Shown: positions 62,290-63,567 of the stretch, in pieces
How the letters are laid out: each line of letters starts with the position of its first letter
Numbering within the stretch: the stretch's first letter is position 1
NCBI GenBank assembly: GCA_031368215.1
Contig: JANLRD010000135.1
Span: 11,805 to 75,804 of the forward strand
DNA from: Acidimicrobiia bacterium
Lineage (GTDB): Bacteria > Actinomycetota > Acidimicrobiia > Acidimicrobiales > JANYDT01
Length of the DNA stretch: 64,000 nucleotides
Direction: 5' to 3'
The notes under the pieces: generated by a model
What the model was told of the DNA's origin: nothing
The model's input: only the letters and a program-made list of their open reading frames with translations
The model's database searches: none
Made by a program: the position numbers and the translations under genes

Positions 62290-63567
62290 TCAGGTGAGGA
62301 GCCATTCGGGGCCGGAGGGGGTGTCGCGGACTTCGATGCCGGAGGTGGTGAGGCGGTCGCGGATGAGGTCCGAGAGGTCGTAGCGCTTGTCCTTGCGCAC
62401 CTCGCCGCGAAGTTCGAGCAGAGTCTCGACGAATGGCGCCACCCGCTCCCGGGGGTCGGCCAGCCCCTGGCCGGCTGCCTCGCCGAGGCGGCTGATCATC
62501 GAGCGCATCATCCGCCGGGCCTCGTCGGCTTCCTCGGACTGCAGGGTGTCGGCCGACCAGGCATGGATGGCCGCCTCGAGGTCCAATGCGGCGCGCACGG
62601 CGCCATCGCCGTTACCGGCGATGAGGGATTCGGCGAAGGCCGCGCCGAGTCGCTCCGTGGTGGCACCGAGTGACGCAGCGTCGATCGCTGTTTCTGCGTC
62701 GGTCGCGGGCGGGTCAGCGACGGCTGGGGTCGCGACCGTGTGACCGCCGGAATGCGTGGCGGTGGCACCGGGGAAACGCAACGCGTCGATGGGTACAACG
62801 GTCCCGGCGGGGTAGGTCACGGTCGACCCGCCGTGGCGGACCGAGACCACGCCACGACCGATCACTGTCGCGGTGTCGGCGTCGAGATCGAGAATTACGG
62901 CGGTGTGCTCGTCGACGCCCATGACGTGATGTCCGGTCGGCAACGCCGCCTCGAGCATTCGGAGCCGACGCTCGCCGAGGTAGCAGAACCTCGTGTCGTG
63001 ATGTCCGCCCTCGGCGTTGTCGTAGTGGGGGATGAGCGCGACCGGCAGCCCGATTGAACCGAGCACGTCGAGACCATCGAGCCAGTGCGGCTCCTCTCCG
63101 GCCTTGTAGATCTCATACACCGGAACGGTGACGCGCCCGAGCGTGAGGGCGGCGGCAGAGGCGAACGTGACCGCGCCGCCGGTGCGGAGCTTGTCGGCCA
63201 GGATCGTGTGCAGCGGCGATCCCGTCCACTGGTGAAGCGCATAGGTGGGCGAGCCCGGCCCGGCGAACACGTAGGTGGATGCACGAAGGAGGTTGAAACC
63301 GCGTTCGAGGGCCACCGGGTCGCCGCCGACAATGCGGGTCAGCCCGGCCACGCTGAGCTCGGTCACCACCGATTCGGCAAAGTACTGCACGGCTTTCTGG
63401 GCCAGCTCCGAGGCGTTCTCCTGAAAGCCGTAGGGCGTGTCCAGCAGCGCGGCCCGGGCCGCGACACCGAGGCGTCCGACGACTTCTCGGTGGACCTTCA
63501 CCATCGTGGGTGCGGTCTCACCGGAGCCCATCAGGGTGAGGATGCGGGGAAGGGGAGCAGTCGTCAT
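62290..63567 (-). CDS. peptidase-S51/GATase1-like domain fused to a CysRS-type C-terminal (DALR-2 / anticodon-binding-like) module
   Basis: This is the 3' part of ORF 62290..63807, from ATG 63567 ([17 protein letters not shown]). S51-like: [18 protein letters not shown]. The C-terminus [44 protein letters not shown] mirrors the extreme C-terminus of bacterial CysRS. Confidence 0.7.
   Translation of the reverse strand: [425 protein letters not shown]

Follow-up and report, generated by a model that had tools for sequence, protein, structure and literature searches.

A gene on the minus strand of a 64,000-nt stretch of DNA from an Acidimicrobiia assembly (the whole stretch is called the window below) encodes a 425-aa protein in which a hydrolase domain of the peptidase S51 (PepE/cyanophycinase) fold is joined to the C-terminal module of cysteinyl-tRNA synthetase (CysRS). 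Both parts are of known kinds; their combination and the activity that it implies are undescribed, and we found no paper that connects cyanophycinase-like or S51 proteins with CysRS or tRNA. On the basis of residue conservation and a predicted structure, we tentatively propose that the protein is guided by the anticodon to tRNA-Cys and hydrolyzes an aminoacyl or acyl-aminoacyl ester there. An editing domain is absent from CysRS, and we know of no factor in bacteria that is dedicated to policing or using tRNA-Cys. The family points to an unrecognised step in cysteine decoding, in tRNA-Cys quality control or in Cys-tRNA-dependent chemistry, and it is present in abundant freshwater, soil and marine Actinomycetota and in a phylum labelled Chloroflexota, including some of the smallest free-living genomes sampled. 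If the proposal is correct, the anticodon-binding domain of a synthetase can be moved as an address label onto an unrelated enzyme, and a tRNA-Cys quality-control enzyme is important enough to be retained in streamlined marine actinobacteria with genomes of ~1 Mb. The proposal is directly testable by standard tRNA-binding and deacylation assays.

The gene occupies positions 62290..63567 (minus strand) of the window, which lies on contig C40 of a 4.9-Mb, 66% GC assembly. The open reading frame (ORF) begins with an ATG at 63567 and ends with a stop codon at 62290-62292, and its translation has full-length homologues at 35-96% identity; residue numbers below refer to this protein. A longer, TTG-initiated frame of 505 aa was rejected as the gene because homologues start at the same place as the 425-aa ORF, and the extension is only open upstream sequence. 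The closest relatives of the locus are found in metagenome-assembled genomes (MAGs) of Acidimicrobiia and Ilumatobacteraceae. Source databases name family members as hypothetical proteins, cyanophycinase-like exopeptidases or cysteinyl-tRNA synthetases. An earlier reading of the DNA, made from sequence only, had picked out several motifs in the translation, and all of them are present: LTLMGSGE is residues 10-17, the nucleophile motif contains Ser137, ALIPHYDN contains His181, and the CysRS-like stretch corresponds to residues 379-422.

The C-terminal part of the protein consists of a helical bundle that corresponds to the DALR-2-type bundle of CysRS (residues 300-371; positions 62455..62670, minus strand) and a CysRS-type anticodon-binding domain (residues 372-425; 62293..62454, minus strand). 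When the single sequence was searched against the PDB, it matched CysRS 8qhp with an E-value of 1.4e-5. A profile built from 52 family sequences matched the CysRS structures 8qhp (1.2e-13), 1li5 from E. coli (9.1e-12) and 3tqo (9.5e-12), the E. coli match spanning profile positions 295-416 and chain residues 334-460. Thus, the DALR-2-like stretch and CysRS C-terminal module named in the sequence-only reading were recovered by the profile and also by hhalign, which placed residues 304-422 on E. coli CysRS 337-460 with a probability of 96%. Residues 357-422 align without gaps to residues 393-458 of 1li5, and the last ~45-85 positions of the NCBIfam cysS models match the protein, TIGR00435 doing so only at model positions 380-463. 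We then modeled the protein with AlphaFold2, using the 52-sequence family alignment, and obtained a mean pLDDT of 90.6. The bundle helices in this model cover residues 300-316, 320-338 and 341-367, and residues 301-425 superpose on residues 332-461 of CysRS from the tRNA complex 1u0b with a Z score of 8.3 and 27% identity. The rmsd of this superposition is large, which in the model fits two sub-domains set at a different angle.

In the 1u0b complex, G34 of tRNA-Cys forms hydrogen bonds with Arg427 and Asp436 and stacks on Trp432, and a water molecule links G34 to Asp436 and Arg423 of E. coli CysRS; Arg427, Trp432, Asp436 and Arg439 are the anticodon-binding-domain residues that were picked for re-targeting CysRS to another anticodon (PMC12684709, PMC13449415). 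The corresponding residues here are R387 (R423 of E. coli CysRS), R391 (R427), Y396 (W432), D400 (D436), R403 (R439), D415 (D451) and W422 (W458). We examined their conservation in 117 representatives clustered at ≤50% identity, 108 of which include the C-terminus. R387, D400, R403 and D415 are present in all 108, R391 is present in 107, and position 396 is W, F or Y in 107. The sequence-only reading had raised the idea of a hydrolase directed at tRNA or aminoacyl-tRNA, and the near-invariance of the anticodon-contact residues that were checked (107-108 of 108) strengthens that idea; the activity remains predicted from sequence. Judged by these residues, the module probably still binds the GCA anticodon. 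Members of two short-form groups lack the helical bundle and keep the terminal anticodon reader with the same residues. Because both groups drop the bundle yet retain the reader residues, the terminal reader appears to be the indispensable appendage, and its retention is the strongest sequence argument that the GCA anticodon loop may still be the ligand.

The N-terminal domain (residues 1-265; 62773..63567, minus strand) adopts the S51 fold in the model. Residues 1-263 superpose by VIA-align on the S51 structure 6nqc (Z 26.6, rmsd 2.7 over 236 residues), on cyanophycinase (Z 24) and on PepE (Z 20.5-20.9), and Foldseek E-values for the domain range from 1e-13 to 1e-10. At the sequence level, positions 5-256 of the family profile match 6nqc with an E-value of 1.7e-11. 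The sequence-only reading had assigned ~290 aa to this domain; the domain is there, but it is shorter (~265 aa), and residues 273-295 belong to a disordered linker. A MAFFT L-INS-i alignment with E. coli PepE places S120, H157 and E192, the established catalytic triad of PepE, on S137, H181 and E220. The canonical PepE triad is also mentioned in PMC9239234. The predicted nucleophile Ser137 (codon 63157..63159, minus strand) lies in FASAAAL and starts helix 137-143 directly after strand 131-136, and thus sits at a strand-to-helix elbow. The predicted general base His181 (63025..63027, minus strand) lies in IPHYDN, and the predicted third member Glu220 (62908..62910, minus strand) lies in GVDEHTA, a region that matches a fragment of the NCBIfam cyanophycinase model TIGR02069. 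The structure match and the PepE alignment therefore bear out an S51/GATase1-like fold with a nucleophilic Ser and the His of PHYDN.

Ser137 and His181 are conserved in 117 of 117 representatives and Glu220 in 113. Retention of the triad among such divergent sequences indicates that the S51 domain is under selection as an enzyme and is not a pseudo-enzyme. Four further motifs are invariant in the family, FQxN (48-51), GPGSP (103-107), PVYEIYK (149-155) and NAEGGxHDTR (184-193), and none of them occurs in PepE or 6nqc, which argues for a substrate pocket of its own. By its sequence, the domain thus looks like an active enzyme with a distinct pocket, and the protein appears to be a divergent branch of the S51 superfamily that lies outside the curated Pfam sequence model. 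We compared it with 6nqc (a cyanophycinase-like exopeptidase of an acI-B1 actinobacterium), CphB (3en0, 7uqw) and PepE (1fy2, 6a4r). The fold and the positions of the Ser-His-Glu triad are common to all, and GSGE and DE(x)TA motifs are shared with 6nqc. In contrast, identity to the S51 structures is only 15-19%, the NAEGGxHDTR loop is 8 residues longer in the new family, and only the new family carries an appended tRNA-synthetase module. The two halves are connected by a Pro/Ala/Thr-rich segment (residues 273-299; 62671..62751, minus strand), which has pLDDT values below 50 at residues 273-295 and varies in length and sequence across the family.

The family is large. A word-indexed protein search returned at least 8000 candidates, and exhaustive comparison with the 50%-identity representatives yielded 1857 proteins at E ≤ 0.001 and 514 at E ≤ 1e-30, with nearly full-length coverage in almost every case. 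The architecture is intact in 130 of 150 representatives. We considered whether the other 20 carry alternative C-terminal modules and rejected the idea; their ends are Arg/Pro-rich junk tails or are cut short, and look like frameshifts or fragments. The sequence-only reading had allowed that the architecture might belong to a widespread, already named family with a non-tRNA function. It is indeed widespread, but we found no paper on it. Proteins in the nearest Atlas clusters, from Actinomycetota and Chloroflexota, are called "hypothetical protein" or "Cysteinyl-tRNA synthetase family protein". NCBI applies the name "CysS/YqeB C-terminal domain-containing protein" to some fragments, among them the partial member P0299; E. 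coli YqeB itself shows neither a CysS_C match in Pfam nor similarity to the family profile.

The family is found in Acidimicrobiia and in the Chloroflexota-labelled phylum, and its distribution over other Actinomycetota is patchy. Among 301 sampled genomes of the phylum of the source organism, 25 have a strong full-length match (E ≤ 1e-60); the positives include 12 of the 14 genomes sampled from the order of the source organism, 2 of 7 sampled from the remainder of its class and 10 spread over other families. The phylum tallies here and those for selA below include unpublished genomes (G001, G018, G048, G082, G088, G120, G148, G174, G226, G239 and G268), none of which is a family-positive genome named in the text. 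Most of the remaining matches in this sample are the C-termini of genuine CysRS, reached through residues ~350-424 at E-values of 1e-5 to 1e-10, which provides a reciprocal confirmation of homology. In a class-level sample 26 of 61 genomes are positive, including all 12 from one streamlined genus with genomes of 0.9-1.1 Mb and 30-33% GC. Within the Chloroflexota-labelled phylum, 33 of 151 genomes match, 8 with a full-length protein and ~25 with a short form. Short forms are 352 aa long in a Chloroflexota-labelled genome and ~360 aa, encoded at 30% GC, in the ~1-Mb actinobacterial genus, and they place only ~40-50 residues between the catalytic domain and the anticodon reader; full-length forms have the 70-residue bundle and a linker of 25-60 residues there. 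Stand-alone relatives of ~245 aa without the CysRS module share 30-33% identity with the protein. At the other extreme, five metagenomic clusters (P0272-P0276; 1133-1224 aa, 41-45% identity) continue the S51-CysRS unit into a multi-pass membrane region followed by an extracytoplasmic SCO1/thioredoxin-like domain with a CxxxC motif.

We also examined the CysRS-type proteins of the same genome. A second CysRS-type gene at 17377-18501 of the window (minus strand) scores 409.9 bits with TIGR03447 (MshC) against 328 bits with cysS, in keeping with its earlier description as an MshC-like paralog that is not the donor of a split. Its score is below the 485-bit cut-off of the MshC model, and the paralog could be either an MshC that has diverged or the ligase of a related thiol. 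The genuine cysS, which the sequence-only reading had suggested locating in the genome, is on contig C210, where a 458-aa protein matches the full-length cysS model with 412.8 bits. With an MshC-like paralog in the window and a complete cysS on another contig, the gene studied here is not part of a split synthetase. The genome has one tRNA-Cys(GCA), and this tRNA together with a complete CysRS means that the proposed substrate pool exists. In the organism's own CysRS the equivalents of R427, W432, D436 and R439 are retained, whereas the positions of R423, D451 and W458 are taken by Leu, Gln and Val. The reader residues of the module are thus nearer to the E. coli CysRS set than to that of the organism's own enzyme, and the module is thus not a recent, decaying copy. 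BLASTP of the protein against this CysRS gave no significant match. The protein, used as query, detected the CysRS C-termini in most other families of the phylum but not those in its own order. CysRS and the fusion protein share the homologous region (CysRS 334-460, residues 300-425 here) and the matching anticodon-contact residues. The fusion protein, in contrast to CysRS, lacks the Rossmann catalytic domain, the HIGH and KMSKS motifs, the zinc site, the CP domain and the stem-contact fold, and it cannot aminoacylate; in its family, moreover, the bundle is dispensable in short forms.

In the mechanism that we tentatively favor, the borrowed CysRS anticodon reader would find tRNA-Cys, and the S51-fold hydrolase with its Ser137-His181-Glu220 triad would then break an acyl linkage on this tRNA. 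The likeliest substrate would be an ester to A76 of cysteine, of a wrong or damaged amino acid, or of an N-blocked aminoacyl group, so that the enzyme would serve as a trans-acting deacylase or quality-control factor for tRNA-Cys. The hydrolase may reach the 3' end through the flexible linker or across a dimer, and the outcome would presumably be hydrolysis and not transfer. In S51 enzymes, the bound acyl group carries a free alpha-amino group, and its carbonyl is attacked by the serine. A precedent for nucleotide-linked substrates is MccG, an S51 peptidase that detoxifies processed microcin C, an aspartyl-adenylate mimic, by hydrolyzing it (PMC9239234). MccG shows that a nucleotide can serve as leaving group; where the enzyme is attached to a tRNA-Cys reader, the evident equivalent would be an aminoacyl ester on A76. 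MccG resembles the present protein in being an S51 serine hydrolase and shows that the fold can act on aminoacyl-nucleotide conjugates (PMC9239234). It differs in that it is a single domain with a Ser-His-Asp triad and no RNA-binding module, is found in antibiotic gene clusters, and acts on a small molecule at an aspartamide-nucleotide carboxamide bond. Because the gene is present in all 12 sampled ~1-Mb genomes, a housekeeping role is favored over one in secondary metabolism, and retention in such genomes likewise favors quality control.

The proposed logic, in which a recognition element helps a hydrolase to attack a charged tRNA in trans, would be analogous to that of the free-standing trans-editing factors YbaK/ProXp, AlaX, DTD and CtdA, some of which have an appended tRNA-binding domain, such as the C-terminal domain of plant ProXp-ala (PMC9425024). 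The catalytic folds of these factors are unrelated to S51, none of them has a CysRS anticodon-binding domain, and none is specific for the body of tRNA-Cys; correspondingly, the protein gave no match at E ≤ 1 to the YbaK/ProX, AlaX or DTD families in Pfam or NCBIfam. A narrower version of the proposal, which we regard as possible but rather unlikely, is that the protein represents the first anticodon-guided aminoacyl-tRNA hydrolase built on the S51 fold, with a role in tRNA-Cys quality control for which selenocysteine and oxidised cysteine are among the candidate targets. Both carry a negative charge, as does the aspartate that is the usual ligand of S51 enzymes, and one may speculate that a pocket of the Asp type favors anionic analogues, for instance selenocysteine or cysteine sulfinate. 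A literature search for the specificity-pocket residues of PepE returned nothing usable for this acidic-side-chain idea.

Several observations weigh against the proposed activity. Although the family profile detects both halves of the protein, the Pfam checks suggested earlier did not: CysS_C (PF23493) scores 18.7 bits (E 0.0019), below its 23-bit cut-off, and Peptidase_S51 (PF03575) gives no match at E ≤ 1. Precomputed PF23493 labels do occur on some close relatives and on 58-77% of members in the nearest Atlas clusters, and one relative reaches 16.3 bits on PF03575, for which the cut-off is 23.9 bits. For one chain to reach from the anticodon to the acceptor end, dimerization or the flexible linker may be required. 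CysRS is highly accurate, and to our knowledge no need for editing specific to tRNA-Cys has been established. The lineage-specific long forms hint at thiol chemistry rather than translation. Finally, the gene neighborhood provides no link to translation; its one conserved neighbor is an alpha/beta hydrolase, which is not present everywhere.

This alpha/beta hydrolase (323 aa) is encoded directly upstream on the minus strand. The 3' part of its gene covers 63564..64000, from where it runs off the window to C40:76339. As the sequence-only reading had noted, the two genes are start/stop-coupled: the ATG of the S51-CysRS gene shares an ATGA with the hydrolase stop codon. The upstream protein matches Abhydrolase_1 (E 3e-23) and has a GQSWGG nucleophile motif; generic hydrolase models are its only matches. 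Roughly three quarters of the related loci have it directly before the S51-CysRS gene in the same orientation, as do 6 of 12 distant loci from the phylum. We considered whether frames of 819 and 869 aa at two loci (L101 and L107) represent fusions of the two proteins, but the hydrolase and the S51-CysRS protein are in different frames there, so that these are only open upstream extensions. Across the class sample, a hydrolase orthologue (E ≤ 1e-25) is present in 12 genomes, all of which carry the S51-CysRS gene, with the two adjacent in all but one (a fragmented assembly); no orthologue at this threshold was found in the 35 genomes of the sample without that gene. Conversely, 14 positive genomes have no hydrolase orthologue, including all twelve ~1-Mb genomes. 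Because the hydrolase was found only where the S51-CysRS gene is, and the latter often occurs without it, the hydrolase is a dependent yet dispensable partner, and in the proposed mechanism it would be an optional one. No other neighbor is conserved in the 26 actinobacterial, 11 Chloroflexota-labelled and 6 streamlined loci that were inspected.

In a first alternative, the protein is a Cys-tRNA-dependent cysteinyl transferase: Ser137 would accept cysteine from Cys-tRNA-Cys as an acyl-enzyme and hand it on, not to water but to an amine or a thiol. Conceivable acceptors are a peptide, a lipid or the precursor of a low-molecular-weight thiol, and the alpha/beta hydrolase or the membrane/SCO1-like part of the long forms could supply or process them. 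The evidence for tRNA-Cys recognition is the same as for the hydrolase proposal, an acyl-enzyme mechanism permits transfer, and the alternative would also make use of a second hydrolase-fold protein that is translationally coupled and was found only in genomes with the S51-CysRS gene (12 of 12), as well as of the thioredoxin-fold domain with CxxxC to which the long forms are fused. However, the 26, 11 and 6 loci contain no conserved acceptor-making genes near the S51-CysRS gene, and the ~1-Mb genomes keep that gene, while the three that were checked have neither the alpha/beta-hydrolase partner (E ≤ 1e-25) nor an MshC-like paralog. Moreover, the genome studied here already has an MshC-like ligase, and no S51 member is known as a transferase. 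We therefore regard a transferase as unlikely, although by no means far-fetched.

We give similarly low odds to a second alternative, an ordinary hydrolase of small peptides or cyanophycin-like substrates whose CysRS module either senses cysteine supply through charged or uncharged tRNA-Cys or has been re-used for a non-tRNA ligand or protein partner. The nearest structures are peptidases, stand-alone relatives without the module exist, and the flexible linker imposes no fixed geometry on the two domains. A changed ligand is hard to reconcile with the strict retention of base-contact residues over more than 100 divergent clusters, and the invariant FQxN, GPGSP, PVYEIYK and NAEGGxHDTR motifs, which differ from PepE and 6nqc, point to a different substrate. 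The sensing version is itself compatible with tRNA binding and differs from the favored mechanism only in the purpose of that binding. A third scenario, which we consider very improbable, has the hydrolase acting on the anticodon arm, for example on an acyl or amino-acid modification near position 34 or 37 of tRNA-Cys. The close spacing of catalytic domain and reader in short forms would suit it, but the reader itself covers the anticodon bases in CysRS, the full-length forms insert a bundle and a linker between the domains, and we know of no amino-acid-bearing modification of tRNA-Cys. An artefact, whether two genes fused by the gene call, the decaying remnant of a duplicated cysS or similarity by chance, could draw on the sub-threshold single-sequence Pfam matches, but is contradicted by the recurrence of the architecture in 130 of 150 representatives, by profile E-values of 1e-11 to 1e-13 for both halves, by the confident AlphaFold2 model and by reader residues that do not resemble a recent copy of the organism's own CysRS, and we dismiss it.

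We also asked whether the anticodon-guided hydrolase proposed above is tied to particular traits. The gene selA is found in 207 of the 301 phylum genomes. In one family (f2), selA is present in 0 of 4 genomes and the S51-CysRS gene in 4 of 4. As selA was not found in several positive genomes, a tie to the selenocysteine-decoding trait was rejected; this result does not bear on mischarging with selenocysteine. A link to mycothiol is limited by three genomes of the ~1-Mb genus, which carry the S51-CysRS gene and show only one CysRS-type catalytic domain and no MshC-like paralog. An inositol monophosphatase gene lies upstream at one distant locus, but nothing of the kind is consistent across loci. 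The source genome itself (contigs C20 and C88) encodes a tRNA-Sec(TCA) and a selA match (7.6e-113), and therefore decodes selenocysteine. ARAGORN additionally reported an unusual tRNA-like gene on contig C88, the anticodon of which has two bases.

The wider neighborhood in the window is a minus-strand run of a 6-phosphogluconolactonase-like gene, a small nucleotidyltransferase-like gene, the alpha/beta hydrolase gene and the S51-CysRS gene, with a Znu-type ABC transporter in convergent orientation. ZnuABC was considered as a functional partner and rejected; close relatives often share the convergent arrangement, but in more distant ones the transporter has moved or vanished, which indicates synteny and not function. 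In six streamlined loci (L140-L145), gene order is nearly identical and both neighbors of the S51-CysRS gene are encoded on the other strand, so that it is probably monocistronic there. The convergent znuB-like gene and the S51-CysRS gene are separated by a 198-bp gap (62092-62289) that contains an imperfect 19-nt hairpin at 62125-62163. A copy of AACCTCTCTCC lies in the same gap; the window contains exactly four copies of this motif where about one would be expected, and it is a small dispersed intergenic repeat.

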